59,944 bases of DNA from a virus (lineage: Duplodnaviria > Caudoviricetes). Of this stretch, positions 5,476 to 25,053 are shown piece after piece. The first letter of the stretch is position 1. Every line of letters begins with the position of its first letter. Under the pieces are notes generated by a model. That model did not search any database. It was not told the origin of the DNA and was given only the letters and a program-made list of their open reading frames with translations. The position numbers and the translations under genes were made by a program. The stretch spans positions 1 to 59,944 of IMG/VR virus record IMGVR_UViG_3300043661_000028. One strand, given 5' to 3'.

Positions 5476-5480
5476 GCGTC

Positions 5481-8667: not shown

Positions 8668-9199
8668 GAATTCCGTCCGTGGCTCCGGCCGCTCCCGCGC
8701 CGGAGCCACGGACACCACCATGTTGATCTGGAAGGTGATCGCCGCCAGCCCCGGCATCACGTATGGCGAGATCCGGGAACGCGTCGAGCACGACATCCCG
8801 GCCGGCTATGCCTGCCGACGCTTCGAGCGCTGGTCCTATCGGCCCAAAAAGTACATTGGGACAGATCGGTCTCTCCCAATGTATCTACGGAAAGCACGGG
8901 GCTACATCCTTGCGATGGCTCTCTCCGACATGAAGCGCAACCGCAACATCACATCTGACGGCAGCGGCAAAGGGCAGCGGTATACGGTTGCGCGAGAACT
9001 GCATTACATGGGCAACGCCGACGCGATCGACGAGACCGGCACCAAGGCCGCCGAGCACATGGCTGTCGCCGAGGCCCTCCGCAAGGTGGAGCGCATGCTC
9101 GCCACGCCCACCGCAGTGCAGAAATACGGCCGGAAGAACTGCGAGGCTATCGAGCGCCTGGTCAGGACGCTCCGGGCGCGGGGCAGCGCGGATACCTAG
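8660..9199 (+). CDS. Hypothetical basic protein, possibly wHTH
   Basis: Overlaps the ParB-like gene; IWKVIAASPGITYGEIRERV. Confidence 0.55.
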   Translation: MTENSVRGSGRSRAGATDTTMLIWKVIAASPGITYGEIRERVEHDIPAGYACRRFERWSYRPKKYIGTDRSLPMYLRKARGYILAMALSDMKRNRNITSDGSGKGQRYTVARELHYMGNADAIDETGTKAAEHMAVAEALRKVERMLATPTAVQKYGRKNCEAIERLVRTLRARGSADT

Positions 9200-10017
9200 A
9201 GGCTCGCCGCCGCAGCCGCGATCAGCCGTCGTGCTTCAGCGCCGGTAACCGCCTCGGCTAGCAGTGCCTCGGTGATCCGGTCGTAGATGGCCGACTCCGC
9301 GCCGATGAACCTGTCCTCGGACGTGAATGTCTCCACGACGGTCACGTCATCGGCGGTGAGGTAGCCGACCATCGGGGCCACGGCCAGCTCGACGCCTGGC
9401 GGGATGATCGCCAGCGTCACGTTGCCGAGCCCGGAGAGGGTCATCAGCCGGTCGAGCTGGCCGGCCATCACCTGGGGCGGGCAGAGCAGGTAGCGGAGCG
9501 CGGCTTCGCAGATGATGAACTCGAACGTCTTGCCCGCGTCGTAGAGCACTTCCTGCCGGCGCATCCGCCCGGTGACCGTCTTCTCAACGTCGGACTCCGC
9601 GAAGCCGTGCACCCGGACGGCCTCAAGGGCCCGGTACCGGGCGTAGTCGGCGGTTTGCAGCAGGCCGGGGATGAGCATGACCTCGAAGTTGCGGATGCGC
9701 TCAGCTTCCCGGACGAGCTTGTCGAACTCGGCCTGGAGCGCGGCGTGTCCGCGGCGCAGCTTGTGCCGCCACTGCTCGTGGACGGCCTGGGCCTCGGCCA
9801 GCAGGTCGAGCAGGGCGGGGATTTCCTCCGGGTGGCCGCATGCCTGCGCCCACCCGGTGACGTCATCCTCGCTGGGCATCTGCTGGCCGCGTTCCAGCTT
9901 CGGCACGCGGGACCGGGATTTCCACCCGATCTGTGCGGCCAGCTCTTCACCAGTCAGCCCGGCGTCCTTGCGCAAGCGCTTGAGGCGCTCCGCGAGGGCA
10001 CCGGGCTGGTTGAGCAT
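9196..10017 (-). CDS. XRE HTH + DUF5753 regulator (WhiJ/Scr1-like)
   Basis: LKRLRKDAGLTGEELAAQIG...KLERG; IPGLLQTADYAR; RMRRQEVL; EAAL...MAGQLDRL. Confidence 0.9.
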   Translation of the reverse strand: MLNQPGALAERLKRLRKDAGLTGEELAAQIGWKSRSRVPKLERGQQMPSEDDVTGWAQACGHPEEIPALLDLLAEAQAVHEQWRHKLRRGHAALQAEFDKLVREAERIRNFEVMLIPGLLQTADYARYRALEAVRVHGFAESDVEKTVTGRMRRQEVLYDAGKTFEFIICEAALRYLLCPPQVMAGQLDRLMTLSGLGNVTLAIIPPGVELAVAPMVGYLTADDVTVVETFTSEDRFIGAESAIYDRITEALLAEAVTGAEARRLIAAAAASL

Positions 10018-10048
10018 CTCTCCGGTCGGTCGCAAGGCAGTTCCTCGG

Positions 10049-10585
10049 TCAGGCGGCGGCGTGCTCTTCCGCCGGGGTGGCGATACGGACTGCCAGGTCC
10101 CGCCATTCGATGTACCGGGCCACGGTGCCCGGGTCGTCGCTGATCGTTCTCTTCTCCATCGCACCGTCGTCGGTGAACTGCATGTGGATTACCCGCTCGT
10201 CATCGAGCAGCCACCAGTCGTTGCCGGTCCATGCGGGCAGCCCGGCCAGCCGGGCCTCGCGCCGCGAGACGTAGCCGATGCGCTCGCCGGCCCGCGAGTG
10301 CCACGGGGCCGCCCACATCTCCCACCGCTGGTAGTCGGACGGCGGGTCATCGAGCACGCGGACGCGGCTGACCATCTTGCCCTCGGCCGTCAGCCGGCCG
10401 ATCTCCTCGAGCCACGGCCGCCACCAGTCCAGCTCCGTGGGCGGCACCGGCGACCCCGCGAGGAAGCGGTCGAAGTCGGCCTGCTCGTAGCCGAGCGCGT
10501 AGGTGCTGCGCGTCTCGAGCCTGAAGGCCGACCGCCTGAACGACCGGAGCAACTCGTCCGACCACTCCAGGTCTTCGTCAGCCAT
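10049..10585 (-). CDS. DUF6879 family protein
   Basis: FRRSAFRLETRSTY...RVRVLDDPPSDYQRWE...DWWLLDDERV. Confidence 0.8.
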   Translation of the reverse strand: MADEDLEWSDELLRSFRRSAFRLETRSTYALGYEQADFDRFLAGSPVPPTELDWWRPWLEEIGRLTAEGKMVSRVRVLDDPPSDYQRWEMWAAPWHSRAGERIGYVSRREARLAGLPAWTGNDWWLLDDERVIHMQFTDDGAMEKRTISDDPGTVARYIEWRDLAVRIATPAEEHAAA

Positions 10586-10781
10586 CAAGGCCCCGGATGC
10601 GGTCGATGACGTTGGCCGGGACGAACACGGCATCCTCGTCGCCGCCGAGGTCGCGCAGATGCGCCCTCGTCTCGGCGTCGAGCGCCTTGCCCTGGACGAC
10701 GTAGCCGCCCGGTGCCTCGTACATGGCGGGGCAGTTGCCGACGTTCGACGCGTCGTCTTTCCACATGAACTTGAGCTGCAT
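10578..10781 (-). CDS. Small protein typically found upstream of DUF6879
   Basis: SNVGNCPAMY...GYVVQG...EDAVFVPANVI. Confidence 0.7.
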   Translation of the reverse strand: MQLKFMWKDDASNVGNCPAMYEAPGGYVVQGKALDAETRAHLRDLGGDEDAVFVPANVIDRIRGLDG

Positions 10782-10938: not shown

Positions 10939-11148
10939 GTGGAACCGGAAACTGCTGAAATCGCGGAAGCCCCCGTGCTGCTCATGCCCGGCGTGGCCGC
11001 CCGCAGGGTCGGGGTTGTCGCTCGCACCCTGGCGAACTGGCACCGGGCCGGCAAGATCACCGCAGTCGTCACGTTCGGCGGCCAGCGCCGCTACCCGGAA
11101 CCCGAGATCACCGCGCTCGCCACCAGCCAGACCGGGGCGGCGGCCTGA
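10939..11148 (+). CDS. BldC/excisionase-like MerR-type HTH
   Basis: LLMPGVAARRVGVVARTLANWHRAGKITAVVTFGGQRRYPEPEI matches the BldC-family pattern. Confidence 0.8.
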   Translation: MEPETAEIAEAPVLLMPGVAARRVGVVARTLANWHRAGKITAVVTFGGQRRYPEPEITALATSQTGAAA

Positions 11149-11149
11149 G

Positions 11150-11383
11150 GTGCCTCTCCCGATCGCCCAGGTCCGCGTGCTCCGCCTTATCGCGGACACC
11201 GGCCCCGCCACCGCCCGGCAGGTGACCAGGGGCCTGCGCCTGGAACGCGTCATCACGCAGAACGCGCTGAGGCTGCTCACCGATAAAGGGCTGGTGACCG
11301 CGGATCACTTCACGGTCCCCGTGTCCTACAAGATCACCAGCGCCGGGCACCTCGCCCTGGCCGCCGGGGGCGGCGAATCCTGA
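11150..11383 (+). CDS. Small winged-helix protein
   Basis: QVRVLRLIADTGPATARQVTRGL...LRLLTDKGLV...YKITSAG. Confidence 0.65.
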   Translation: MPLPIAQVRVLRLIADTGPATARQVTRGLRLERVITQNALRLLTDKGLVTADHFTVPVSYKITSAGHLALAAGGGES

Positions 11384-11479
11384 TGCCTTTTCGCACACAA
11401 GACGAGAGCGGTCCCGCCCGACACGGGACCGCCCTCAACACCCGTCTCACCCGGTTTGCACGCCCAGGAAGGCCCGCAG

Positions 11480-11620
11480 ATGCCCAACGTAACACAGCCC
11501 CCCGACAGCAGTACGGACCGCCCGCTGCGCCCGCCGAACGTAACCCCGGAGTGGGTCGCGGAGCTGGAGTTCTGGGCGGCCGAGCGGGGCCTGCCGCCCG
11601 AGCCGTGGCCGCTGCCGTAA
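11480..11620 (+). CDS. 46-aa small protein (not in the ORF track)
   Basis: SD AGGAAGG at 11466; MPNVTQPPDSSTDRPLRPPNVTPEWVAELEFWAAERGLPPEPWPLP. Confidence 0.45.
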   Translation: MPNVTQPPDSSTDRPLRPPNVTPEWVAELEFWAAERGLPPEPWPLP

Positions 11621-11696
11621 CCCGCACCTGGCGGCGGCGGTCTTCCCCGCCGCCGCCGCCCAGCGTCCGGGTTTGCACGGAAAGGAAGGTGACCCG

Positions 11697-11951
11697 GTGA
11701 GCCGTCACCAGGGATGGCGCGCGCAGGCCGCGTGCGCCAGCACCGACCCCGGGATCTTCTTCCCCCGGACCGGCGAGTCGGTCCAGCCGGCCAAGGCCAT
11801 CTGCGCCCGCTGCCCGGTCACCGCGCAGTGCCTCGCGCACGCGGTCAGCGTCCCGGAGCAGCACGGTGTATGGGGCGGCCTGGCCGAGCGGGAACGGCAC
11901 GGCCTCGGGCCCAACAAGCAGCCATCGCAGTTCCGAAAGGTAGCCGCCTAG
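11697..11951 (+). CDS. whiB: WhiB family transcription factor
   Basis: WRAQAAC..TDPGIFFP...AKAICARCPVTAQCL...GVWGGLAERER. Confidence 0.95.
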   Translation: MSRHQGWRAQAACASTDPGIFFPRTGESVQPAKAICARCPVTAQCLAHAVSVPEQHGVWGGLAERERHGLGPNKQPSQFRKVAA

Positions 11952-11953
11952 CC

Positions 11954-12232
11954 ATGCGCGCGTTCTTCCGCCTGATCCTCAACCTCGCCCTCCTGGTGTC
12001 CGCAGCAGCCGCGATCGGCTGGCTCACGACCCAGGAGGCCTATCACCACGCATCCCGCGACGCCCGGATCGTGATGGTGGCTGCTGTCGCCGCCGGCTTC
12101 TTCATCGTCGCCTGCATCGTCCTTCACGCGGTCCCGTCGAAGGCGCAGCTGGCCAGGCGCAGTAAGGGCAAGGGCGGCAGGCTGTCCTACCCGTACGCGG
12201 CCCCGGCGAAGCGCGGCAGGCGGGCGTCGTGA
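11954..12232 (+). CDS. Membrane protein (2 TM)
   Basis: Two hydrophobic helices, basic tail; ATG 11954. Confidence 0.6.
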   Translation: MRAFFRLILNLALLVSAAAAIGWLTTQEAYHHASRDARIVMVAAVAAGFFIVACIVLHAVPSKAQLARRSKGKGGRLSYPYAAPAKRGRRAS

Positions 12233-12999
12233 TCGCCGCGGCCCTGCTCGCCGTCTCCCTGCTCGCGCCTGCCAGCGTGGGGACCGGCATCGGCGGCCCC
12301 GTGTGCCTGCGGGTCACCGCCCAGCCCGGCCGCTCCTACCCGCTCGCCGGGCTCAGCGTCTCCGATACCGGCAGCGACGGCGAATCGATCAGCCTGCGGG
12401 TCGTCCCGGACCCCGTGATGCCCGCCGCGCGCCAGGCCGCGCGCCTGCGCCAGGTGCCGCCCTCGTGGATCACCTTCGGGCCCTCGTCAGTGAATGCAGG
12501 GCCCGGGCAGGCGGTTCCCGTGACGGTCACCCTGAATGTCCCTCCTGGTGCCGCGCCCGGCCCGCGCGAGAGCTGGGTGCAGGACGGCACGGTCTCCGCC
12601 CCGGCATCAGGGCCGGGCGGCCATGCCGTGCTCGGGGCGTCCGCCACGACCACGCTCGTCTTCACGGTCGGCCCGTCGGCAACCCCGCCGCCGTGTGACG
12701 CCCTGATCCTGGCCCAGTCGACCGGGAAGTTCCCGCCGTGGCCGACCGCCGCGTTCGCGACGTCGGGATGGGCGCAGGTGTTCGCGAGGGACGGCGCCGC
12801 GCCGTCCGGCCGCCCAGACACGGCTGTACGTCCGGGCACCGCGCCGGTCGCCACGTTCACGCCGGTCGCGGCGCCCTCCGTTTCTCTCGCCAAGGCCACC
12901 ATCCCGACGAAGCTCCCGGTGGACTGGAAAGGCTGGGCAATCGTGATCGGCCTCATCGTCGCCGCCGTATTCGCGGCCGGCAGAAAGCTGGGGGGCTGA
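12229..12999 (+). CDS. Secreted, C-terminally anchored protein with Ig-like beta domain
   Basis: Signal-peptide-like N-terminus; PSWITFGPSSVNAGPGQAVPVTVTLNVPPGA; C-terminal TM. Confidence 0.6.
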   Translation: MIAAALLAVSLLAPASVGTGIGGPVCLRVTAQPGRSYPLAGLSVSDTGSDGESISLRVVPDPVMPAARQAARLRQVPPSWITFGPSSVNAGPGQAVPVTVTLNVPPGAAPGPRESWVQDGTVSAPASGPGGHAVLGASATTTLVFTVGPSATPPPCDALILAQSTGKFPPWPTAAFATSGWAQVFARDGAAPSGRPDTAVRPGTAPVATFTPVAAPSVSLAKATIPTKLPVDWKGWAIVIGLIVAAVFAAGRKLGG

Positions 13000-13002
13000 C
13001 CG

Positions 13003-13287
13003 ATGGCCGGACGATTCAAGGCCGGCGGCCGCACCTACATCGACACCCCTGCCGGGCACCTTCAGGCTACGAGGGACAAGGTGGCCGACACGGCACGGAG
13101 CCGAGGTCACGACATGATGCACTGGAGCAAGGTTGCCAGCGCCGCACCGCCGTACTTTCGTGCCACCTGCGGGAAGTGCGGCGCCGGGGTGAAGGTCGTC
13201 ACCGGCCGGGCCCCGGCGAACCTGCCCGGCTATCCGAGCCTGCTCAGGTTCCGCAAGGTCACCTGGTGCCCGGGGCGGCGACGCTGA
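13003..13287 (+). CDS. Small basic Zn-binding protein (paralog A)
   Basis: MAGRFKAGGRTYIDTP...GHDM...FRATCGKCG...C. Confidence 0.65.
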   Translation: MAGRFKAGGRTYIDTPAGHLQATRDKVADTARSRGHDMMHWSKVASAAPPYFRATCGKCGAGVKVVTGRAPANLPGYPSLLRFRKVTWCPGRRR

Positions 13288-13889
13288 TGGCCGCCCGCAC
13301 TGGCCCGGTAGTCGCCATAGCCATCCTCGCCGCCCTGCTGGCCGCATCGCGGGCGGGCGCGGTCACGCACCTCGGCGCCGCCCCGGCCCGGGACACGGCA
13401 GCCGCCCCGGCTGGTTACGTCAACCCGCTCGCCGGGGAGCGATGGGCGCTGGCCCGCACGGATCAGGGCGTCGACTACAGGCCGCGCGTACCGGAGCCGG
13501 TCCGCGCGATCGGCGCCGGGACCGTCGTCTTCTCCAGTACCGCGTACTGCCTGCCGCACGGCTGGCCGGGATGCGCTGAGATCGCCTACAAGCTCACCGG
13601 CGGCCCGGCCGCGGGGAACGTCGTCTATGTCGCCGAGCACCTGACGGGCCTGCTGCGGCAGGGGTCGTTCAAGGCTGGTGCGGTGATCGCCACCGCGCTG
13701 CCGGGCTACCCGTGGACGGAATGGGGGTGGGCGCGGTGCGACGGGACCGGCCCGGCGGTGCGGTACAACGGCGCCCCGGACGGCACGCCGATGCCCGGCG
13801 GCCTCGCGTTCGCCCGGTTCATGCGCGAGCTAGGCGCGGGCACGGCCCAGGATCCGGGTCCGGGGCCCGACGTCGTGAGGAGCTGCTGA
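13287..13889 (+). CDS. Secreted M23-peptidase-like protein (atypical metal ligands)
   Basis: Signal peptide; RTDQGVDY...VRAIGAGTVV...YVAEHL...KAGAVIA. Confidence 0.6.
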   Translation: MAARTGPVVAIAILAALLAASRAGAVTHLGAAPARDTAAAPAGYVNPLAGERWALARTDQGVDYRPRVPEPVRAIGAGTVVFSSTAYCLPHGWPGCAEIAYKLTGGPAAGNVVYVAEHLTGLLRQGSFKAGAVIATALPGYPWTEWGWARCDGTGPAVRYNGAPDGTPMPGGLAFARFMRELGAGTAQDPGPGPDVVRSC

Positions 13890-14176
13890 TGGCCGGGCGG
13901 TTCAAGGTCAATGGCCGCACCTACCCCGATACCCCGCTCGGGAAGGCTCGCGCCCGCAAGGACAAGCAGAACGCGCGCCTGGCCGACCACGGGCACCGGA
14001 TGACATGGCGGAAGCTTCCTGCTGACCCGGTCTGGCGGGCTGCATTTCGCGGGACCTGCCGACGATGCCGCGGCGAGCTGGATTGCAGTGAATACGGCCC
14101 CCAGTGGCGGTCGGCGAGCAGTCCGACCCTCCTCAAGTTCATGGGTGTCAACATCGTCAAACGGTGCGGTTCGTGA
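13889..14176 (+). CDS. Small basic Zn-binding protein (paralog B)
   Basis: MAGRFKVNGRTYPDTP...GHRM...FRGTCRRCR...C. Confidence 0.65.
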   Translation: MAGRFKVNGRTYPDTPLGKARARKDKQNARLADHGHRMTWRKLPADPVWRAAFRGTCRRCRGELDCSEYGPQWRSASSPTLLKFMGVNIVKRCGS

Positions 14177-14751
14177 TGCCCGCCTACACCTACCGCCTGC
14201 CCCGCAAGTACCGCTGCCGGCCGCGCGGCAAGAACAGCTACGCGGGACCGGTCGTCGGCGCGGTCATCTTCGCTGCCCTGGCCAGCGCCGGGACCAAGGC
14301 CGCCGTGCACCACGGTCACGCCGGGCACACCCGCGCCGCCGTCACCGCCGTGATCATCCCGGCCGGAAGCAACCTCGGCACCCCCGCCGGCGTCGCCAGC
14401 GCCCTGCTCGCCGCGGACAGCCTGCCGCGCACATCCTGCAACCTCAATGCGGTCACCGCATGGGAGCGCGCTGAAGGCGGCGGGTTCGGGAATCAGGCGA
14501 GTTACGACCCGCTGAACGTCAACCCCGGACCCGGCGCGGGCTGGCCAGGACATCCCGCTATCGGGGCGTGGGCGTTCCCTGACGCCGCGACCGGCCTGCG
14601 ATACACGGTCTCGACACTCAACAACGGCTACTACGGCGGCATCCTGTCCGCCCTGCGCGCCGGCAACTCCGCCCAGGCCGTCTGCAACGCGATCATGGCC
14701 AGCCCGTGGGCGGCCAACCGCTACGGCGGCACCCTGACCGCTACCTGCTGA
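14176..14751 (+). CDS. Exported lysozyme-fold cell-wall hydrolase
   Basis: N-terminal TM; AWERAEGG...YDPLN...GLRYTVSTLNNGYYGGILSALRAG...SPWA. Confidence 0.6.
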   Translation: MPAYTYRLPRKYRCRPRGKNSYAGPVVGAVIFAALASAGTKAAVHHGHAGHTRAAVTAVIIPAGSNLGTPAGVASALLAADSLPRTSCNLNAVTAWERAEGGGFGNQASYDPLNVNPGPGAGWPGHPAIGAWAFPDAATGLRYTVSTLNNGYYGGILSALRAGNSAQAVCNAIMASPWAANRYGGTLTATC

Positions 14752-14763
14752 AAGGTCGCCCTG

Positions 14764-15090
14764 ATGCAACTCACGTCCGCCGACCTGCACCTTGCCGGCG
14801 TCGTCATCGCCGCGCTCACCGTGGAGGAGGTCATCCGGGAGGCCCGGCATCCGATGTACGGCGAGAGCAAGCCCGACTTGCTGGGTTCCGCATGTTACGG
14901 CCTCGTCCTGGCAGTGGTCGCCCTGGCCGTCTGCCGCGTCCTGCGCGGGGCTGAGGTCATCGCCATAGCCCTGGCCGTCCCGCTGGCTCCCGGCTGGGCC
15001 CTGCACAGGCTGAGCCAGCACCGGCGCCGCGTCATCAGCAAGGGCATCGACACCGTGATTGCCCAGAACCGGTACCAGGAAAGGCGATAA
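14764..15090 (+). CDS. Membrane protein
   Basis: Several hydrophobic segments. Confidence 0.55.
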   Translation: MQLTSADLHLAGVVIAALTVEEVIREARHPMYGESKPDLLGSACYGLVLAVVALAVCRVLRGAEVIAIALAVPLAPGWALHRLSQHRRRVISKGIDTVIAQNRYQERR

Positions 15091-15096
15091 ACGATC

Positions 15097-16023
15097 ATGA
15101 TCCTCGCTGCCCTCGGCTGGATAGCCGCCATCGGCCTGCTGGCCGCCTGCCTGTCTTCGGCCCGGCATGGCCTGCATGACAAGAAGTACGGCCCGTGGAC
15201 CGGCGCCGGGCTGTACGCCTGCGCCGCCGTAGTCCTGCTCGCCGCCGTCGGCGCGCTCAGCCCCGCCGCCGCCGCCGTGCTGGCGTTCCTGACTCTCATC
15301 ACCGCCGCCGGGCTCGCCGTTACCGAAGCCCTGAACCCGGCGGACGGCCAGGAAGTCGCGGCCGGCTGGAGGCTAGCCGCGGCCAGAGGCGCGTACGGCC
15401 ATGCGGGCGCCGGCTTCGGCTACCTCGCCCGCGATACCCGCGGCCTGGCCGGCTGGCTGAAGGGCCGTCGGCAGGAGCGCGCAGGCAAGCTCCCGGACCC
15501 CGGCCCCGCGGCATCCGCGGCCTGGCCTGCATCACCCGTCACCACCTTCAAGCCCGACCCGAACGGAGCAAGCACCATGCCGCCAAGGAACGCCAGCGGG
15601 AACGGCACCAGGCCGCCAGCGAACGGCACCGTCCAGCAGCCCGCCATCCGGGCCAGGCGCCTGGCCGCGCAAGCCGGATCAGTGCCGGTGCCCGCGGGAT
15701 GGGCGGCTGTCGTCGCCGGGACCGCGGACTTCGAGGCGGGAAGCAACGTCGAGCTCGCCCAGTGGATGACCGAGCAGGTTCTCGGCCTGGCCGCCTGGGC
15801 CGAGGCCATTGTCGAGCAGCACGAGGCCAACCGCGCTAAGGGCGTCGACGCGGCGGCTATCTCCATGCTGCATGACGTCGCGGACGCGGGGGTGGCCTCC
15901 GCCGGGGCGATGGCCGGGGCGGTCAGCCAGTTCTGCAACTACTTCGAGCTCCCCGACGCCTTCGTCGACGAAGGCAAAACGCTGGCGCACAGCGGCGACT
16001 GGCATCAGGGCAGCCCAGGATAA
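15097..16023 (+). CDS. Membrane-anchored putative transfer-associated protein
   Basis: N-terminal TMs, linker and helical C-terminus; immediately upstream of the TraB-like gene. Confidence 0.5.
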   Translation: MILAALGWIAAIGLLAACLSSARHGLHDKKYGPWTGAGLYACAAVVLLAAVGALSPAAAAVLAFLTLITAAGLAVTEALNPADGQEVAAGWRLAAARGAYGHAGAGFGYLARDTRGLAGWLKGRRQERAGKLPDPGPAASAAWPASPVTTFKPDPNGASTMPPRNASGNGTRPPANGTVQQPAIRARRLAAQAGSVPVPAGWAAVVAGTADFEAGSNVELAQWMTEQVLGLAAWAEAIVEQHEANRAKGVDAAAISMLHDVADAGVASAGAMAGAVSQFCNYFELPDAFVDEGKTLAHSGDWHQGSPG

Positions 16024-16052
16024 GCAACCCGACGTCACGAAGGAACAGTTCA

Positions 16053-18392
16053 ATGCCGCTCGCCGACCTGGATACCTTCCCCCGGCCGTGCCCGATCCCC
16101 GGTCATCCCGAGGATCCGGAAGACACGGCCCGGCCGAGGGTGCCCGAGTCGGCGTGGCGGCGGTTCCGTGCCTGGCACCTAAAGGCCCCAGCGGAACGAC
16201 TCCCGCTCACGGGCATCGCGGTGACATGGCCAGCCGCGTGGCTGATGCACCTGATCCACGTCCGCCTCCTGGACATTGCGGTGGCCGCGGCTGCTGTCAC
16301 CGCCCTGGCGTGGCTGGTGTGGGCGTGGCACACGTGGAGGTACGACCGGGCCCTGGCCGCCCGCCGTCCCGCCCGGCAGCGTTTCCTGCCCAGCGAGGCG
16401 GCAGGTGTCGCGGCGGCCTCGGGCGGCTGGGTCACCGCCGCCGCCCACTGGGGTCCCCTCGCGCCGCCCGGCTGCTGGCCGACCGTCATCTACCTGGCCG
16501 GGGGGCTCTCCGGGTACCGGTGGCTGCGCCGCCATCCTGCCGTACAGGACGCGCGGGACCAGCGGGACGCAGCCGCCGAGCTGGTCCGCCGGAAAACCTG
16601 GTGGCACCTGATCGCCCACCTGATCGGCCTGGGCGGCTTCGACCTCGTGAACGTCATCCCGACGCTGCTCGGTGAGCAGCTGCTGCTGACCAGCGCCCCG
16701 GGGAGCCGCAGCGGCCGGGCATCCCAGATCGCCGGCCATCCGGAGGGAGTGGCGGAGAACCTGCTGCATCACCTCGGCATGGACTACGGCAATATCGATA
16801 TCACGACCCCGAAGCCGGGGTGGCTGCTGGTCGACATCCGCTATGAGGACCCGTCGATAGAAGGGCCGGTCAGGCACCCGATGATCGACCCCGGCTCCCG
16901 GTTCGCTGACTTGTTCCCCGCCGTGGCGTCGGTGCGCGACCCGGTGCCGCTGCTGGTCGTCCCGGAGACAGGCGAGGTCGCCAGCGTCGCGCTGTGGGAT
17001 GAGAACGGCGGGAAGGTCATCGGCGTGTACGCCGCGGGAGGCCAGGGCAAAACTACCGTGCTCAACGACCTCCGCGAGCGGATCACCGCGATGGATGACG
17101 CGGTGCTGCTGCAGGCGAACGGCGCGAAGGTCGGCGACGAGCTCGCGTGGGCGCCGCTGGCCGCCGGGACCGCGGCCGGGTCGGTACTGGCCGATGAGCC
17201 GGCCGGGACATGCGACAAGATCCTGGCCCTGCTGGAGTACGGGCAGCAGCTGATCACCGACCGGTCCGCCACGCACGTGATCACCGGCGACTCGGTGTTC
17301 CGGCCGACGAGGAAAGACCCGGCCGTGGTCATCGAGCTGGATGAGGTCGATGAGATCCTGAAGATCCCCGGGGCGCAGGCGGCGATCGAGTTCCTGGCCA
17401 GCAAGCGGCGCTCCTCCGCCGTCACGCTGGTCCTGGCCACCCAGCGGGCAATCCAGCGGTGGACCGGCGGCGGCGGCGTTATCGCGAACCTGACTGATGT
17501 CCTGATCGGGAACATGACCCGCGCGTCGGAATCCCGTCACGCGACCGGCGCCGATCATGAGATGCCGGATATCAGCGAGTACTCCAAGGGGCAGCCCGGC
17601 TATTTCCAGCACTGGGACCCGATGGCCAAGCGGGTCGTGGCCCGGGGCCGGGCGTTCAACATCGGGACGATCGGCGAGCAGCAGCGGAACATCATCTGGC
17701 GGCGTGACCCGGCCGCCCGGCCCGCGCTCCCGGGTCCGGAGCTGGACCTGGACGGCTACGGCCAGCCCGAACCTGACGACGACAGTCGACTACCCACGGC
17801 GGATGACCCGGACAGCCTGCGAGGCCGTCTCGCTCGCGCGGTCGGCCTGCTGCCTGGCGGTAACCAGGGACGACACGCCAAGGCCGCCGGCGCAGCCCCT
17901 CCCCCGGCCGGTCCCGCCCCGGCCGCTGCGCCCGGGCGGGCGGTGCGGATGATCCCCGGCGTCCCCGCTCCGGTGGCCGCCACGATGCTCAGGCTCCTCG
18001 CAGGAGAGGGCACTACGAGGGCGGCTATCGAGCAGGCCACCAGAGTGGGGAAGACGAAGGCGTACGAGTACCTGAACGCCGCCCGTAAGGCCGGCGTCGC
18101 GAAGCAAGTCGGGCAGGGCCCGGCCGCCCGCTGGCTACTAGCCGGTAACCCCGCAGGGGATGAGGTCCCCGGACCGGCCCCCGAGCCTGTGACCAGGCCT
18201 TACGGCACGATCGAGATGCTTGCCGATGCGGTCGCCGCCGGGCTGGTCGAGTGTAACGACGATACCCGGGAGATGCTCCTGAAGGCCCGGGAGCTGGCCG
18301 GGCAGGGGGCACCCCGCCAGCGAGGTCACCTGACCCTGCTGCCCACCGGGGATGGTGACCCGGCGGACACGGGAGCGGGTGACAGGCAGTGA
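16053..18392 (+). CDS. traB: FtsK/SpoIIIE-family DNA translocase, TraB-like
   Basis: N-terminal TMs; Walker A AAGGQGKT; Walker B VVIELDE; ASKRRSSAVTLVLATQR; C-terminal wHTH (GTTRAAIEQATRVGKTKAYEYL). Confidence 0.8.
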   Translation: MPLADLDTFPRPCPIPGHPEDPEDTARPRVPESAWRRFRAWHLKAPAERLPLTGIAVTWPAAWLMHLIHVRLLDIAVAAAAVTALAWLVWAWHTWRYDRALAARRPARQRFLPSEAAGVAAASGGWVTAAAHWGPLAPPGCWPTVIYLAGGLSGYRWLRRHPAVQDARDQRDAAAELVRRKTWWHLIAHLIGLGGFDLVNVIPTLLGEQLLLTSAPGSRSGRASQIAGHPEGVAENLLHHLGMDYGNIDITTPKPGWLLVDIRYEDPSIEGPVRHPMIDPGSRFADLFPAVASVRDPVPLLVVPETGEVASVALWDENGGKVIGVYAAGGQGKTTVLNDLRERITAMDDAVLLQANGAKVGDELAWAPLAAGTAAGSVLADEPAGTCDKILALLEYGQQLITDRSATHVITGDSVFRPTRKDPAVVIELDEVDEILKIPGAQAAIEFLASKRRSSAVTLVLATQRAIQRWTGGGGVIANLTDVLIGNMTRASESRHATGADHEMPDISEYSKGQPGYFQHWDPMAKRVVARGRAFNIGTIGEQQRNIIWRRDPAARPALPGPELDLDGYGQPEPDDDSRLPTADDPDSLRGRLARAVGLLPGGNQGRHAKAAGAAPPPAGPAPAAAPGRAVRMIPGVPAPVAATMLRLLAGEGTTRAAIEQATRVGKTKAYEYLNAARKAGVAKQVGQGPAARWLLAGNPAGDEVPGPAPEPVTRPYGTIEMLADAVAAGLVECNDDTREMLLKARELAGQGAPRQRGHLTLLPTGDGDPADTGAGDRQ

Positions 18393-18463
18393 GTAAAGAG
18401 GGGACGGGTGTGCGAGCCTGCCACGTACCTACCGCAGATCGTTCGTGCACCATCACTGGCCAG

Positions 18464-18510
18464 CGAACGAACGACTCCGCGAACGACTCCGCGAAAGATC
18501 TCACGAACGG
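18464..18510 (+). repeat. 12-bp period direct repeats after traB (clt-like)
   Basis: CGAACGACTCCG x2 (18468, 18480), CGAAAGATCTCA (18492), CGAACGG (18504). Confidence 0.6.
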
Positions 18511-18540
18511 TTTTCCGGTGACGCCCGGTAGTGGAAAGAG

Positions 18541-19269
18541 GTGAGCGGGATGGGTGCAGAGCAGGCCCGGGAGCTGTACATCCAGGCTGAGGTGCTCGCC
18601 GAGATCAGCGACCTGGCCGAGGTGGCCGGTGAAGTTCTCGCCGGCGCCGAGCAGGCCGGAGCGGACCGCGGCGCCGTCACCGGCCTGATTACCGCGATCC
18701 GGGCCCTCGACCCGGGCATGGCCGTCCGCTATGACGCGGGCAGCGCCTCTGACCGGCGCGTTAACACCGGCTACCGGTCAGAGTGGGAGTTCCTCGAAGG
18801 TGTCAGCGATGCTGAGGATCAGCTCGAGCAGCGCCGTCGTGCCGCCGCCGCCCTGCTTGCCGCCGTCGTGACGCTGCAGGACTCCGCGCTGAAAGCCCTC
18901 GGCGCCGCCGAGGCTGACCTGACTGCCGCGCATCGCCAGCTGACCGCCGCGATCGCCTGGCCGGTCAATGAGCCGTGCACCGGCTGCCACGGCGCGAAGC
19001 AGGCCGACATAGACGAGGCCGAGGCCGCGGTAGCCGGCGCGGACGACCGGGCCCGGGATGCCCGGCAGTCCGTCGCCGTGTGCGAGACCGCGGCTGAGGT
19101 CCTGGACGATCTCGCCGCCGCCGTTAAAGCGGTGCTCACCTGCGTCCGCAGGGTCCCGCAGGACCTCGGCGAGGTGTACGAGCTGGTGCACACGTTCATC
19201 CGCAACGGCGGCAGGCTCCCGGACTACGCCCGGTGGGTTGAAGGGACAGCGCGCCACGGGGTGGCGTGA
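18541..19269 (+). CDS. Coiled-coil protein with CxxCH motif
   Basis: Ala/Glu-rich helical ORF within the operon. Confidence 0.6.
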   Translation: MSGMGAEQARELYIQAEVLAEISDLAEVAGEVLAGAEQAGADRGAVTGLITAIRALDPGMAVRYDAGSASDRRVNTGYRSEWEFLEGVSDAEDQLEQRRRAAAALLAAVVTLQDSALKALGAAEADLTAAHRQLTAAIAWPVNEPCTGCHGAKQADIDEAEAAVAGADDRARDARQSVAVCETAAEVLDDLAAAVKAVLTCVRRVPQDLGEVYELVHTFIRNGGRLPDYARWVEGTARHGVA

Positions 19270-19306
19270 CTCCCTCAAGTCACTCATGAGAAGAAAGGTG
19301 CTCCTG

Positions 19307-20218
19307 ATGAGCGCTGCAGCACAGGTGAACGGCCGCCAGCATCCCGCGAGCCGGCCGACGCAGGTCACCATGGAGCCGATCGTCATTCCCGGCCGCACTG
19401 GCAACGAGTTCCGTGCCGCGGCCGGCCTGGCATCCTGGTCGCCCGCAGTCCTGGTGTCGGAACTAGCGGCACAGGCGCCGTTGCAGGAAGCCGGCACCGA
19501 GCCCGGGCCGGCTACGGCAGGCGGCCGGCTCGACGGCGACACGGCCATCCGCGCCCTGGCCGCTGTCGTGGTCCTGGCCGTCGCCGCGTTCGCCGCCATC
19601 GTAAGTTACAGTCACATCTTCGATCTCGGCGTTCACCACGGCCAGAACGGCACTGCTGCCAGGCTGCTGCCGCTGTCGGTCGACGGGCTGATCGCGTCGG
19701 CGTCGCTTGTCATGCTGCACGCCGCCAGGCGCAAACTTGACGTGCCGTGGCTGGCGCGGGCGATGCTGGCGCTGGGCGTCGGCGCGACTGTCGCCGCTAA
19801 CGTCGGGTACGGCCTGCCGTTCGGGTGGCTGTCCGCTGTCGTGTCGGCGTGGCCGGCGGTGGCGTTCGTCGGGAGCGTGGAGATGGCGGTCAGGTTTGTC
19901 CGCGACGCCCGCCACGACAGCGGCAGCGGACAGGACAAGATGCCGGCCGTCCGCGCCTGCGACACCCGCCAGGCCGTGCCGCTGACCGGCAGGAATGACG
20001 CGCCACGCCAGGACAGGACAGCGGACAGGCCGCAGGGCGGTCAGGGCACGGCGCCGGTGTCGCGCAGCCGCGCCGCCGGCGCGTCCGGGCGTGCCGGGGC
20101 TGCTGCCATCCTGAAGGACAAGCCTGGCCTGCCAGACGCTGAGGTGGCGAAGCTGGCCAGGGTGTCGGTGCGCACGGTCCAGCGCGCCAGGAACGACAGC
20201 GCAGGGAGCACGGCATGA
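19307..20218 (+). CDS. DUF2637 (SpdA-like) membrane protein with C-terminal HTH
   Basis: AFAAIVSYSHIFDL...ARLLPLSVDGLI...ATVAANV...SAWPAVA; PDAEVAKLARVSVRTVQRAR. Confidence 0.8.
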   Translation: MSAAAQVNGRQHPASRPTQVTMEPIVIPGRTGNEFRAAAGLASWSPAVLVSELAAQAPLQEAGTEPGPATAGGRLDGDTAIRALAAVVVLAVAAFAAIVSYSHIFDLGVHHGQNGTAARLLPLSVDGLIASASLVMLHAARRKLDVPWLARAMLALGVGATVAANVGYGLPFGWLSAVVSAWPAVAFVGSVEMAVRFVRDARHDSGSGQDKMPAVRACDTRQAVPLTGRNDAPRQDRTADRPQGGQGTAPVSRSRAAGASGRAGAAAILKDKPGLPDAEVAKLARVSVRTVQRARNDSAGSTA

Positions 20219-20622
20219 GCGAGACCGGGACGCCCCGCCAGAACCGCGAAGGTCACCCGTGCCCGCCGTGGTGCGAGACCGATCATGACAAGGCGCACGG
20301 TGCCGCCGGGCTCTTCATGTTCCACGGCGGCGCCACTGCCGGCATCGAGGTGCGCGGCAAGGCCGCGTCGGGGCTGCGGGACAGGATCTACGCGTGCCCC
20401 TTCAGCGCCGGCCAGCCCGGCTACGAGCCGGTCGTCAGCGTGGCCAGCATCCGGTACGGCGCCGTCGGCGCGGACCCGCAGGTCTGGCTGAGCGCCCGCG
20501 ACGCGGGCGAGCTAGCCGGCCTGGTCGAGATGCTCGCCACCGCGACCCCGGCCCAGCATCGGGAGCTGGCAGCCGCGATCCGCAGGGCTGCCGCGCAGAT
20601 CACGGAGGCATCCGATGGCTGA
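20215..20622 (+). CDS. DUF6907-like protein
   Basis: HPCPPWCETDH...LSARDAGELA. Confidence 0.55.
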   Translation: MSETGTPRQNREGHPCPPWCETDHDKAHGAAGLFMFHGGATAGIEVRGKAASGLRDRIYACPFSAGQPGYEPVVSVASIRYGAVGADPQVWLSARDAGELAGLVEMLATATPAQHRELAAAIRRAAAQITEASDG

Positions 20623-20899
20623 CCTGGAGCAGCGCCGCCGTACCGTCCGCGTCCTCGATCTGCTGAGCGATTCGTTCGAGGCGCACGAGCGCGGCGACGC
20701 AGCCGGGATGGGCCGCCTCATCGATGAGGCCCTCGAGGTAGACGCGTTCGCGGTATCCGGCATCCAGGGCGGCATCATCATCGGGGAGATCCCGGATCCG
20801 GCCCGGGACTGGCCGGGGTGGGGGCTGTATGTGGACGCCGCGAGGGAAGCGCTGATGGCGGCGGAAGCGGAGGGGGAAGGTCCGCCCGGGCCCCGATAA
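20615..20899 (+). CDS. Hypothetical protein
   Basis: Overlapping ORF, good codon usage. Confidence 0.55.
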   Translation: MADLEQRRRTVRVLDLLSDSFEAHERGDAAGMGRLIDEALEVDAFAVSGIQGGIIIGEIPDPARDWPGWGLYVDAAREALMAAEAEGEGPPGPR

Positions 20900-21582
20900 C
20901 ATGACCATGGCCCGGTGCCGGATCGAGCACCTGCCCCGGGCGCGAGGACATAGGGTTCCCCGTCGCGAGGGTTGTCCTCTTTGAAACACGGTGGCGGCGG
21001 CAGTGGTCACTGACCGGCTGTGAACGGCGGTTGGGTCTTGGCAGTTCCCCGGCCAAAGAACTGCCGCCTGAACGGATGCAGGGGGGCGCGTGGTGCGGGA
21101 GGCGGACGCGGCGGCGCTGGTGGCCGACGTGATGGTGGCGCTCGGCCTGCGCGGCCACGACGTGAAGGTGACGCACGCGAACGGGCCGCGCCTGCTGCGG
21201 CTGGGTGCGCTGATGCTCGACGGGTTCGGCGTCACTGGAGACGAAGGGATGGCTGATGAGCCCACGACGCAACATATCGCCCGAGGAACATGCCCTGGCG
21301 CGGGCCCAGGGGCACGCTTACATCGCGGTCAACTGGATCCAGTGCCCGGCATGCGACAACCGGCAGGCCGGCCCGATTCACCGGACGAGTATCCGGCTCT
21401 GGCAGGGACGCGCCGACCGCGCACAGAGGCACGACGGTGTTGATCCGCTCAGCGGTGTCACGCTCGCAGATGCCGAACGCCACCTAGCGGTCCGCGCAGC
21501 GCAGATGCCCTCCAGTGCGCCCGCTGCTACTGTGACGACTACGCCACGTACAACCTGCGTCCGGCTGAGACAGGCGGCACCG

Positions 21583-22032
21583 ATGACGGCCCGGCCTGAC
21601 TACGGACCCCGCCAGCTAGCCGACTACCTCGGCGCGTTCTACGGCCAGGTCGACCGGGCCCGCTCCTTCGGCCTGCTGCCGGAACCGGACAAGGGCGGCG
21701 GCAGGCGCTGGTCTGCCGCCGCAGCGGACAAGATCCACGCTCGCTGGCCGGAGATCAGGGCGGCAGTAGAGTGCATCGGCGCACCCGGCCTCCGGCAACG
21801 AGGCTGGACTGAGGCGATGATCCGGGACCTCCTGGGGAAGCCGGACGTGCTGACTGATAACCCGCACTTCAAGACCGCCGCACCTAGGCGGCTGTGGCTC
21901 CTGCAGAAGGTGGAGGCGGCCGAGGCTACGCCGGAGTTCGCCTCGCGGAGGGACCGCGCCGCCCGCCAGTGCGCAGCCGCCGCTAAGGCGTCGGGAACCC
22001 GGAAGCTCTGGAAAGCGCTAGGGGGTGCGTGA
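21583..22032 (+). CDS. Conserved hypothetical protein (RGWTEAMIRDLLGKPD...NPH family)
   Basis: Likely start ATG 21583; N-terminal MerR-like HTH segment. Confidence 0.55.
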   Translation: MTARPDYGPRQLADYLGAFYGQVDRARSFGLLPEPDKGGGRRWSAAAADKIHARWPEIRAAVECIGAPGLRQRGWTEAMIRDLLGKPDVLTDNPHFKTAAPRRLWLLQKVEAAEATPEFASRRDRAARQCAAAAKASGTRKLWKALGGA

Positions 22033-22259
22033 TGGCTAGCCTCGCCCCCGATCCCCGCGACTGGACACCTGACCAGCTCATGGAGTGCATATCTCTGGCG
22101 ATCAGGGCAAAGGACTTCGAGGCCGTCCCTCACCTGATCACGCTACTGGCGTTCAAGGACGCGCACCTGGCCGAGACCGTGCACGGGTCGATGATGGCCG
22201 TGCTGACGGCAGGCCGGAGCGCAGTGGCGAGGGAAGGCGGCAGTGATGACGATCGATGA
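22029..22259 (+). CDS. Hypothetical protein
   Basis: Overlapping-gene chain. Confidence 0.5.
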   Translation: MMASLAPDPRDWTPDQLMECISLAIRAKDFEAVPHLITLLAFKDAHLAETVHGSMMAVLTAGRSAVAREGGSDDDR

Positions 22260-22521
22260 GGCCCGCGCCCATATCGGCGACGCCTATGACGCGATCCTGC
22301 GCGAGATCCCGCCGGCCGGCTCGACCACCTCCTGGTCCGCCGGCCGGGATCACCGGCTGCGCGTAGCCGCCGACGGTATGCGCATGGTGCTGGCCGCGCT
22401 GCTCGACGTCACCGGCCGGGATCCGGTTGATCTCGTGCGGGAGGCGTGCACGCTGCTGGCCGGGTTCGGCGCCGGAACCGTTGAGAGTACGGAGGAAGAC
22501 CATGATCGAGGTCGGCAATAA
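22243..22521 (+). CDS. Hypothetical protein ending in a copy of DPVDLVREACTLLAG
   Basis: Overlapping-gene chain; shares 46 bp with the 23012 gene. Confidence 0.5.
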   Translation: MMTIDEARAHIGDAYDAILREIPPAGSTTSWSAGRDHRLRVAADGMRMVLAALLDVTGRDPVDLVREACTLLAGFGAGTVESTEEDHDRGRQ

Positions 22522-23644: not shown

Positions 23645-23646
23645 CC

Positions 23647-24873: not shown

Positions 24874-25053
24874 CGGATCAGGCGAACGCCGGCGAGCTCG
24901 CAACGGTGCTCGAGCAGATCGCCGATTACAGCTCTGACGGCGACATCCGCGCCCACGTGCGCCAGGTGATCGAAGCGCTTCGCGGCAACGGGCTGATCAT
25001 CCTCAACGGGCCACCGCAGCACACGCTATCGGGAGACACGTGACGTCCGTCTC

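Follow-up and report, generated by a model that had tools for sequence, protein, structure and literature searches.

A candidate TraB/clt-type DNA transfer module in the early operon of temperate tailed phages from soil actinomycetes

Introduction

Why would a tailed phage carry, between its immunity region and its packaging genes, an FtsK-like pump followed by a repeat array and accompanied by predicted envelope proteins? The question is raised by IMG/VR virus record IMGVR_UViG_3300043661_000028 (Duplodnaviria; Caudoviricetes), a linear DNA of 59,944 bp with a G+C of ~70% and a CheckV completeness of 85%, which was analysed as one whole record and is called the window throughout. A co-oriented block of plus-strand genes, 10975..20622, lies there between a divergent immunity region and the packaging genes. 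A preliminary description, made from the letters alone, had read this block as a TraB-type conjugative transfer module built into a complete tailed phage. The analysis presented here leads to a related reading, to which we give a probability of about 0.6: the block would be a TraB/clt-type module for the transfer of double-stranded DNA (dsDNA) that a lineage of temperate siphoviruses from uncultured soil actinomycetes keeps stably within its early rightward operon. What appears to be new is the ATPase family itself, the repeat cassette with its correspondence between recognition helix and repeat, and the sharing of the module between several phage backbones and islands resembling the integrative and conjugative elements of actinomycetes (AICEs).

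A TraB-like ATPase in the block

The candidate pump is encoded by a single gene.

16053..18392, plus strand: putative TraB-like translocase of 779 aa, with a hydrophobic helical N-terminus, an FtsK-fold motor and a winged helix-turn-helix (wHTH) at the C-terminus; called from motifs, AlphaFold2 (AF2) model, Foldseek and family profile

The start at 16053 was preferred over a 715-aa call because the N-terminus MPL..PRPCPIPGHP is conserved in the alignment. The protein carries a Walker A motif (GGQGKT), a Walker B motif (ELDEVDE) and the motif LATQR. In the AF2 model (pLDDT 72.6), long N-terminal helices (residues 34-191) precede a P-loop alpha/beta core and a C-terminal wHTH (639-696), the latter built from three helices and a beta-hairpin (H639-650, H656-663, H667-679, E683-686 and E693-696, pLDDT 74-88). 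Foldseek ranked FtsK motor domains first (E 4.9e-13 to 2e-11, TM-score to target 0.56-0.64), the best of them being 6t8o (E 4.9e-13, target-normalised TM-score 0.62, ~415 columns), followed by TcpA of pCW3 (E 2.7e-11), EccC/EssC and HerA. A phmmer search of PDB sequences with the ATPase returned low-complexity or chance matches only, and a profile built from 26 family members (profile A1) found FtsK 2ius (E 0.0027, over Walker B..ATQR..SR) and the ArsR wHTH 2oqg (E 0.016). Family relatives are annotated with MarR_2, IclR or HTH_20 at the wHTH. In the same scan, pIJ101 Tra gave FtsK_SpoIIIE (E 9.3e-10) and a C-terminal MarR_2 wHTH, and the domain order of the ATPase is therefore that of Tra. 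The preliminary description had assigned transmembrane (TM) segments, motor and wHTH to this protein; the motor fold and the wHTH held up, while the hydropathy plot gave one strong N-terminal segment only, at ~61-94 (peak 1.86) with weaker ones at 111-154, and the Pfam FtsK_SpoIIIE model (PF01580) did not match, a point weighed below.

The comparison of TraB with chromosomal FtsK that had been proposed gave a divided answer. Profile A1 matched two uncharacterised, Tra-like open reading frames (ORFs) with an FtsK_SpoIIIE domain in the metagenome-assembled genome (MAG) G004 (454 aa, E 1.7e-15; 647 aa, E 7e-13), collinear including the C-terminus. Neither chromosomal FtsK, represented by ORFs of 1033 and 1065 aa in MAGs G004 and G005, nor the EccC-like ORF of G006 was matched at E<=10; canonical Tra is missed as well. 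Identity with chromosomal FtsK/SpoIIIE was rejected on the lack of a match to host-type FtsK. Six-frame PF01580 searches of three MAGs yielded 16 places, none of them at the position of a family member.

A repeat cassette behind the ATPase gene

Directly after the ATPase stop codon lies a short non-coding segment with the following features.

18393..18540, no strand: putative clt-like cis cassette of 148 bp (G+C 0.60 against ~0.70 in the window)
18440-18444 (minus strand) and 18465, 18469, 18481 and 18505 (plus strand): GAACG-core repeats within the cassette
18456-18463: CTGGCCAG core within the cassette
18400-18407: invariant GGGGACGG box within the cassette

The repeats are 7 bp long, lie ~11 bp apart in two opposed sets and comprise four copies of CGAACGA, one CGAACGG and one degenerate copy. 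Relatives carry 7-mer arrays of their own at the same place (GGACGTT, GAGACGA, GGACGCA, TCGGACG, GCGATTA and others). Seventeen of the 72 loci examined were dropped for a cut 3' end or less than 150 bp downstream, leaving 55, some of which are the same element from different samples. Within 180 bp around the stop codon, a 7-mer occurred at least four times in 36 of these 55 loci and at least three times in 44, compared to a mean of 2.0-2.5 copies in control windows of the same loci. Across 29 distinct arrays, same-strand neighbours were spaced 9-13 bp apart in 86 of 124 cases, with a mode of 11. The layout is fixed, with four repeats, a spacer with a CTGnnnAG core, two opposed repeats and an invariant CCGTCCCC box.

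Relative to the genes on either side, the cassette as a whole has the opposite orientation in the window, in relative G001 and in locus L029 from that in L012, L013, L035, L044, L057, L060, L064 and L074. Inversion in some clades is easier to reconcile with a DNA site that works in either orientation than with a promoter. The cassette matched no Rfam family at E<=1, and CGAACGA is not enriched across the window (12 copies against 8.5 +/- 3 expected). All eight copies outside the cassette (20672..55149) stand on the minus strand, which may reflect the codon bias of the plus-strand genes or a KOPS-type polarity signal. With short direct and inverted repeats at the 3' end of the gene, the cassette qualifies by sequence as a putative clt.

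Recognition helix and repeat change together

The recognition helices of the wHTH were compared with the arrays. Helices of the form xKT..Y go with GAACG arrays (3-9 copies) and those of the form xKS..H with GGACG arrays (5-8 copies); the remaining helix types accompany other repeats, and SKTVALEYL helices, found with GCGATTA-type repeats, form an exception. A tree was built from the motor region only (49 rows, of which 34 bear both traits); each trait changes seven times on it, and a joint change was seen in six of six independent pairs (sign test, p 0.031). Cassette specificity appears to follow the recognition helix, K-T..Y pairing with GAACG and K-S..H with GGACG.

Loci L041 and L044 have near-identical motors (branch lengths 0.004 and 0.03), with helices SKTTAHGYL and SKSAAHRYL and arrays of GAACG x6 and GGACG x8, respectively. 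From the sequences, this looks like a recent swap of the end that holds the wHTH and the cassette.

Family size and genomic settings

A word-indexed search found 269 relatives of the ATPase at E<=0.001 among 8000 candidates scored, most of them 700-780 aa long, some on contigs of up to 293 kb, and named hypothetical protein, FtsK/SpoIIIE or ArsR regulator. With an exhaustive profile search, 681 cluster representatives were recovered at E<=0.001, and 203 remained at E<=1e-30. In a class-wide search, matches (E<=1e-10) were present in at least 5 of 401 genomes, one of them unpublished (G022), a lower bound owing to the stricter first look used for that tally. A scan of genome contigs found no relative with a single protein and three MAG loci only with an alignment.

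The same module genes recur in 23 metagenome loci of at least 6 kb, and a two-TM protein, the ATPase and the cassette stand together in G001 and in all six of L012-L017. The module is often preceded by WhiB, NlpC/P60 and SLT_3 genes. Flanks of relatives extend to at most 10 kb, and the Pfam scan of their neighbours covered 128 representatives (at least 100 aa) of 214 clusters.

Several carriers are phages. The most complete, G008, is a temperate siphovirus of 83,597 bp with an exact 118-bp direct terminal repeat (DTR), and it encodes a tyrosine and a large serine recombinase, DnaB, ERF, an HTH repressor, two NUDIX proteins, WhiB and NlpC/P60 alongside the module, a large terminase (TerL), portal, tail tube, tape measure and fibre. 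Its two NUDIX genes (31029..32061; L091:11032-12061) lie in a minus-strand cluster just 5' of the rightward module operon and recall Pif, the Nudix protein of pSAM2-type AICEs. The genome also has PTPS, radical-SAM and GTP cyclohydrolase I genes (a queuosine-type DNA modification set) and an ArdC-N gene. Elsewhere the module occurs with a portal and a protease-major capsid protein (MCP) in G007, with Terminase_6 and a portal in L059, and with Terminase_6, an XkdF protease, a gp80-like fibre and GH25 in G001, where the window's capsid and portal are absent. The module contig L041 carries a terminase fragment, and L017 an Mtd_N/pectate-lyase fibre and GH25.

Other carriers have no virion genes. 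In L012 and L039 the module forms a ~12-kb island between an AMP-ligase gene and glgB. SSB and Prim-Pol accompany it in L014, L030, L050 and L068 (with DnaN in L068 and an integrase in L014), Prim-Pol and an upstream GntR(+UTRA) gene in L053, ParA and an integrase in L056, a DnaB_N-DUF3987 protein in L060, and DUF2637 and an integrase in L066. The virion-free loci L013, L034, L035 and L037 have integration or replication genes or close chromosomal flanks.

Two side observations belong to these islands. The ATPase gene at L014:5837-8098 is interrupted, with a 483-aa ORF, a short C-terminal fragment and an opposite-strand ORF between them; to judge by its sequence, this copy has decayed, and the island around it carries SSB, Prim-Pol, Mu-type transposition genes and an integrase. 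The L012_7810 group, small exported proteins encoded next after NlpC/P60 in many islands, shares homology with part of the G008 tape measure (67200..70622), which suggests a shared wall-lytic domain.

Contiguity of the window and boundaries of the block

A metagenome contig that joins phage and plasmid-like genes could be an assembly chimera, or the block could be a nested AICE. Over 9000-15574 and 15685-28629, Logan unitigs from run X1 agree with the window throughout (0 differences) and have an even depth of 35.9-38.7, and a 170-base record bridges the two stretches. X1 is probably the source sample, which makes this the result of another assembler and not of an independent sample; its many joints with sides of 20-22 letters were taken as metagenome noise. 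Short pieces identical to the window occur in a second soil study, and independent contigs from other samples show the same gene order.

No integrase or resolvase (PF00589, PF00239) was found in six frames of the window, no att-like repeats flank the block, and no Rep or Prim-Pol was found among the window's called ORFs, PF09250 not having been searched in six frames. The combination that defines an AICE, an integrase, a replication initiator and Tra within att boundaries, is thus not what the window contains. These results bear out the earlier statement that the block has no AICE integrase or boundary, and the outcomes named there as fatal to it, an integrase with att repeats or a chimeric assembly, were looked for and not seen (X1 is contiguous over 9000-28629).

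Identity to the window in G008 and G007 is 42-45% for the ATPase, 41% for TerL, 31-33% for the portal and 47-53% for the protease-MCP. The similar divergence of module and virion proteins points to long co-inheritance. G001 shares with the window only 14164..19269 and 21583..22032, at 72-86% DNA identity, and this restriction to the module region indicates that the module has moved between backbones. Divergent relatives, the 83.6-kb G008 among them, keep the block between immunity and packaging genes, the synteny that the preliminary description had proposed to look for. The presence of the module in the DTR-complete G008, in other phages and in AICE-like islands argues for a stable phage module, and not for a chimera or a nested AICE.

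Other genes of the block

The block is read as one series of mostly small genes around the ATPase and its cassette.

10975..11148, plus strand: MerR/BldC/excisionase-type HTH, 57 aa, first gene of the block (Pfam MerR E 2.8e-7, 30.7 bits, above cut-off)
11150..11383, plus strand: MarR-like wHTH, 77 aa (Pfam MarR_2 E 4.8e-7)
11673..11951, plus strand: WhiB-like regulator, 92 aa (Pfam Whib E 3.4e-25)
11954..12232, plus strand: two-TM membrane protein, 92 aa (hydropathy peaks 2.09 and 2.99; weak homologue in G001)
12229..12999, plus strand: exported protein with an N-terminal signal-like segment and a C-terminal TM anchor, 256 aa (hydropathy)
13003..13287, plus strand: small Cys-rich protein, paralogue of 13889..14176 (79-nt direct repeat 13002/13888, 71% identical)
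13266..13889, plus strand: exported 207-aa protein, candidate M23 peptidoglycan endopeptidase (signal-like segment 7-25)
13889..14176, plus strand: small Cys-rich protein, paralogue of 13003..13287
14164..14751, plus strand: 195-aa protein with an N-terminal TM or signal segment, candidate lysozyme-like enzyme (Atlas 0.85-0.87 to Phage_lysozyme2/SLT_3)
14764..15090, plus strand: two-TM membrane protein, 108 aa (hydropathy)
15097..16023, plus strand: 308-aa partner with two N-terminal TM helices (homologue immediately 5' of the ATPase in G001 and six of six of L012-L017)
18541..19269, plus strand: 242-aa cytoplasmic protein, three-helix bundle and long helical hairpin (AF2 pLDDT 83.7)
19298..20218, plus strand: DUF2637 membrane protein with a C-terminal HTH, 306 aa (Pfam DUF2637 E 1.3e-14, HTH_23 E 0.008; phrog_733 E 3e-14)
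20215..20622, plus strand: DUF6907 protein, 135 aa (Pfam E 2e-10)

Stops and starts overlap or nearly abut at 11148/11150, 12232/12229, 12999/13003, 15090/15097, 20218/20215 and 20622/20615, and together with the Pfam and phrog calls these junctions agree with the earlier account of a co-oriented, coupled block between immunity and packaging genes. Six genes (starting at 11954, 12229, 13266, 14164, 14764 and 15097) are membrane or exported by hydropathy, and DUF2637 (PF10935) scored 54.9 bits against a cut-off of 22.8, with three hydrophobic segments; the membrane proteins named before, DUF2637 included, are thus recovered. The regulators are recovered in part: WhiB and MerR are firm, and the first gene falls below the cut-off of the NCBIfam HTH_BldC model (E 1.2e-9, 37.8 bits, cut-off 77).

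The two genes described earlier as exported cell-wall hydrolases keep their signal or TM segments. The protein at 13266..13889 matched Pfam Peptidase_M23 at E 0.045, and 96% of the members of its Atlas neighbours at 0.95 carry M23; its homologues in L035 (80%) and L059 (65%) stand at the position of NlpC/P60 in relatives. That at 14164..14751 is conserved in G001 (70%), L015, L016, L031, L037 and L064. Relatives carry clear NlpC/P60 and SLT_3 genes at the positions of these two candidates. In hhalign comparisons, the 14164..14751 and 13266..13889 groups aligned with the SLT_3, L012_7810 and NlpC/P60 groups over N-terminal signal or TM segments only, showing no domain homology. Both Cys-rich paralogues, between which the M23-like gene lies, begin MAGRFK.. 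and have CxxC motifs.

Among the remaining genes, WhiB homologues lie 5' of the module in G001, L013, L016 and L017, and DUF2637 also adjoins it in L017 and L066; a tblastn search of phages with the DUF2637 protein gave no match at E 1e-3. The protein of 12229..12999 has no Pfam family and a single homologue (L058 6759..7928). Homologues of the 308-aa partner, also without a Pfam family, form a 22-member cluster in metagenome loci. The 242-aa protein, a 23-member cluster in such loci, follows the cassette directly in G001 and in five of six of L012-L017, L017 being without it. Its hairpin tip carries C-x-G-C-H, with C146, G148, C149 and H150 invariant in an alignment of 21 sequences (A2), and Foldseek against PDB gave generic coiled coils only, none better than E 0.05.

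The phage backbone

Genes were called from third-position G+C, corrected by homology where needed, and the following features frame the block.

7681..8667, plus strand: ParB-like protein, outside the block (phrog_1033 E 5.6e-15; TIGR00180 only E 2e-4)
9196..10035, minus strand: cI-like repressor, HTH_31 + DUF5753 (Pfam DUF5753 E 1.5e-32, HTH_31 E 2.9e-13; phrog_9908 E 2.2e-41)
10049..10633, minus strand: DUF6879 protein, repressor partner (Pfam E 4.8e-48)
28357..29911, plus strand: large terminase in two ORFs, 28357..29298 (ATPase part, phrog_9 E 7.8e-34) and 29381..29911 (nuclease part, E 1.9e-6)
30893..35040, plus strand: portal (from 30893), prohead protease (from 32328) and MCP (from 33658) (Pfam Phage_portal E 5.9e-28, Peptidase_S78 E 1.3e-7, Phage_capsid E 4.8e-33)

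The virion set fills the right two-thirds of the window, with TerL, portal, S78 protease, HK97-type capsid, HNH and head-tail adaptor followed by a 965-aa tape measure, a 1232-aa tail protein and an endolysin. Terminase, portal, protease, HK97-type capsid, tape measure, lysin and repressor, the genes by which a temperate siphovirus of the Caudoviricetes is recognised, are all present, and the predicted virion is of siphovirus type. The left arm (2..5988, minus strand) matches phage families or nothing. Repressor homologues lie 5' of the module in L017, L015 and L059, and the pair of repressor and DUF6879 genes recurs in L015, L017, L037 and L059. The ParB-like gene noted before was confirmed. 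Of the partition genes that mark a phage-plasmid of the pZL12 type, together with virion and tra genes, this one is present, and ParA was not found among the window's called ORFs. The window has no tRNA genes. The earlier claim of a complete phage was not borne out: completeness is 85%, no end overlap or terminal repeat was found at the window ends, and TerL is divided between two ORFs.

The left end of the contig (1..120) lies within a tandem array of a 12-base unit (CCCCGAGCTGG-like), inside gene 2..481 (minus strand), and the assembly probably broke there. A 46-nt direct repeat of 93% identity (22420..22465 / 23018..23063) at the starts of the neighbouring genes 22427.. and 23006.. is a case of duplicated N-termini. 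An HNH endonuclease gene (35454..35936) lies 3' of the capsid gene, and a methyltransferase fragment and a glycosyltransferase lie within the tail-gene region (45446..46878).

Proposed mechanism and points against it

Starting from what was computed, namely the fold and domain order of the ATPase, the cassette and its conservation, the co-variation of helix and repeat and the distribution in phages and AICE-like islands, we infer the following course. Once the cI-like repressor is lifted, which is the presumed timing of expression, the operon would make its regulators (MerR/BldC-like, MarR-like and WhiB), a set of envelope proteins (several two-TM proteins, a surface-anchored protein, DUF2637, and M23-like and lysozyme-like enzymes that may cleave peptidoglycan) and the 779-aa ATPase. 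The ATPase would insert into the membrane by its N-terminus and form an FtsK-like ring, and its C-terminal wHTH would bind, on replicated phage DNA, the array of 7-bp repeats that follows the ATPase gene. The motor would then drive the double-stranded genome across the envelope or a septum and so into an adjacent cell or compartment, where the transferred genome would lysogenise or replicate. The phage would thus have a particle-independent route alongside its virions. AICE transfer is not conservative, and AICEs therefore replicate first (PMC3429521, available text); an induced phage replicates anyway and would meet that need.

Several observations weigh against this reading. Pfam FtsK_SpoIIIE (PF01580) gave no match to the ATPase at E<=5, profile A1 gave none to pIJ101 Tra or to the FtsK-like pZL12.71c at E<=10, and by sequence the family would not be counted as a member of canonical Tra/TraB. 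The failure of PF01580 says little in itself, as pZL12.71c also lacks a match to that model (E<=0.01) and the test is therefore not sensitive for all tra genes. A tblastn search with the whole ATPase at E 1e-5 found nothing in 72,556 plasmids or 50,697 phages. The wHTH codons lie less than 300 bp from the array, so that one recombination event could swap both, and the cassette also stands upstream of the next gene, 18541..19269, as a possible operator. Both block hydrolases, with no significant Pfam match, are leads only. A GntR-type Kor/TraR regulator is missing from the window's ORFs, and control of the block would presumably pass to the phage repressor. The two TerL halves lie in different frames with 82 bases between them (TerL of G008, by comparison, is a single 503-aa ORF), which could reflect a true frameshift in a phage that is defective, an indel introduced by sequencing or assembly, or a gene in two parts, and the window's copy may therefore be defective or mis-assembled there. 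No RNA run appears among the runs listed for the stretch. Finally, the host is uncultured and may not be mycelial.

Alternative explanations

The alternative that survives best, which we nevertheless consider unlikely, keeps the same pump and gives it a task within the host, moving the phage or prophage genome across hyphal cross-walls once infection or induction has taken place, or into spores, by Spd-like spreading or FtsK-like segregation of an episomal prophage. The structural evidence for a pump fits this equally well, the ParB-like gene and the lack of an integrase in the window fit an episomal prophage, and Tra and Spd of Streptomyces also drive intramycelial spreading (PMC4447253, available text). 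What speaks for intercellular transfer instead is that the module also occurs in small chromosomal islands and in elements with integrase and Prim-Pol resembling AICEs, which are known for it (PMC3429521, in the part available), and that G008, with two integrases, is not episomal by default.

It is improbable that the block is cargo, left over from an AICE or hitchhiking in the phage, and of use to itself or to nothing instead of to the spread of the phage. Homologous modules without virion genes, and the restriction of the similarity with G001 to the module region, which implies movement between backbones, would suit such a passenger; the absence of integrase, resolvase and att-like repeats around the block, its translational coupling into the early operon and the similar divergence of module and virion proteins in G008 and G007 would not.

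The fold matches raise another candidate, which we regard as very improbable: that the ATPase is a coupling protein of TcpA/VirD4 type for single-strand type IV conjugation, or a membrane FtsK/HerA-type ATPase for defence or exclusion. TcpA of pCW3 was the second-best fold match (E 2.7e-11), HerA-type defence ATPases stood lower in the list, and L058 has a NikA-like gene ~8.5 kb downstream, but no relaxase or VirB4-type protein was found among the block ORFs or the scanned neighbours of relatives (ORFs of at least 75-100 aa, cluster representatives only), and the sole AAA_10 matches, below cut-off, were the FtsK-like proteins of plasmid CP108176.1 and phage Wofford, discussed below. We know of no coupling protein or defence ATPase with a sequence-specific wHTH and a matched repeat array on its own element.

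We give hardly any credence to the view that the cassette is a replication origin or operator, with the ATPase or the 242-aa protein as initiator or regulator. Iteron-like repeats at helical spacing do adjoin genes here, the cassette does lie upstream of 18541..19269, and RepAM of pMEA300 binds 8-bp repeats in its own gene (PMC2440964, available text). The ATPase, however, has an FtsK translocase fold with a hydrophobic N-terminus, no DNA-binding or Rep fold can be recognised in the 242-aa helical hairpin, separate replication genes (DnaB, ERF, Prim-Pol, SSB, DnaN) are present in G008 and the AICE-like loci, and the inversion of the cassette relative to both genes in some clades is awkward for an operator or promoter. 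An assembly chimera of a phage and a conjugative element, which a metagenome contig without terminal repeats and with its left end in a tandem repeat might invite, is next to negligible, given the X1 unitigs with 0 differences and even depth, though from what is probably the source sample, and the same gene order in contigs from other samples.

Significance

If the transfer reading is right, some soil actinophages spread in two ways, as particles and by direct cell-to-cell transfer of dsDNA, and host range, receptor-based resistance and prophage epidemiology in actinomycetes would have to be read differently. A bolder version, held tentatively and at somewhat under even odds, is that surveys with FtsK-domain hidden Markov models have missed a large family of TraB-like dsDNA pumps, each with an invertible docking cassette of 4+2 repeats; that they form a portable unit which AICE-like islands and several lineages of temperate tailed phages exchange with one another; and that phages with this unit are truly conjugative and send dsDNA genome copies into their neighbours after induction, bypassing receptors and particle-based host range. 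Profile and cassette allow part of the unexplained 'FtsK-like' genes in actinophages and metagenomes to be annotated, and they offer a compact protein/DNA pair for probing a wHTH recognition code. The gene with ~150 bp is also a candidate minimal transfer system for DNA delivery to hard-to-transform actinomycetes.

Comparison with known systems

The module resembles TraB/clt of pSVH1 and TraA/clt of pWTY27 in its FtsK-like motor with a C-terminal wHTH and, by analogy, a presumed membrane anchor, in short repeats at the 3' end of the gene or immediately after it (7-8 bp in theirs), and in small membrane and peptidoglycan-binding proteins as neighbours in coupled operons (available text of PMC4447253 and PMC3583192). 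The clt sites described in the accessible parts of these two papers, those of pWTY27, pJV1 and pSVH1, are 7-9-bp repeats at or behind tra, that of pWTY27 comprising 16 bp of traA and 159 bp with 7-bp repeats and inverted repeats (PMC3583192). Unlike those of pSVH1 and pWTY27, the module has a fixed arrangement of 4+2 opposed repeats, an invariant box and an invertible cassette, has no GntR kil-kor partner and is set in a tailed phage. Canonical Tra has no detectable sequence relationship with the family: the ATPase was missed by PF01580, and pIJ101 Tra by profile A1. SpdA/DUF2637, named in the preliminary description as a hallmark of such plasmids, finds no backing as one here, SpdA and SpdB of pIJ101 having no Pfam match, DUF2637 included.

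Among cultured phages, the nearest motor relatives are the 'FtsK-like DNA translocases' of Streptomyces phages such as Wofford (gp108; a ~130-kb lytic cluster). Profile A1 matched Wofford gp108 over the motor core only (E 2.5e-11, profile positions 310-457), and tblastn matches to such phages had E values of 0.1-0.8 in the 25 records listed of 32 (limit E 1). Unlike the window's ATPase, gp108 (604 aa) is set among tRNA genes, and no operon of membrane proteins is annotated nearby. FtsK-like genes are common in actinophages, and no transfer role is proposed for them in the available part of bioRxiv 10.1101/2024.02.16.580700. The best plasmid match is to a 687-aa hypothetical protein on the Streptomyces sp. 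NBC_00144 linear plasmid CP108176.1, confined to the motor (tblastn 28.7% over 85% of the motor, E 2e-4; profile A1 E 2.8e-17); the plasmid also has a GntR regulator and a DUF2637 protein and is typed in PLSDB as non-mobilizable. Literature searches on prophage, TraB, AICE and capsid found nothing, those joining AICE, terminase and TraB found nothing among the matches listed, and those on TraB, Streptomyces, prophage and FtsK gave no title on a phage-borne module.

AICEs of the pSAM2, SLP1 and pMEA300 type likewise combine an FtsK-type Tra, clt and membrane proteins, and the relatives of the module with an integrase, Prim-Pol/SSB and, in one case, GntR fit the definition of an AICE by Int, Rep and Tra (PMC3429521, as available). 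Unlike an AICE, the window has a full set of virion genes, with no Int or Rep found in the searches described. A 2008 review states, in its available text, that AICE conjugation modules do not seem related to phages (PMC2440964); in contrast, a phage-borne transfer module would blur the line between AICE and phage at this level.

The one precedent for a tailed phage with tra genes is pZL12, as the preliminary description had correctly noted (record annotation; PMC3583192, available text). By the annotation of its record, pZL12 / phage ZL12 (GQ919031) is likewise a tailed phage with ParA/ParB, an FtsK/SpoIIIE-like protein (pZL12.71c) and a GntR regulator, the neighbours of pZL12.71c being large and membrane proteins. 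The block proteins gave no phmmer match to pZL12 at E<=0.01, and unlike pZL12 the present family is metagenomic and widespread and occurs in integrase-bearing phages as well.

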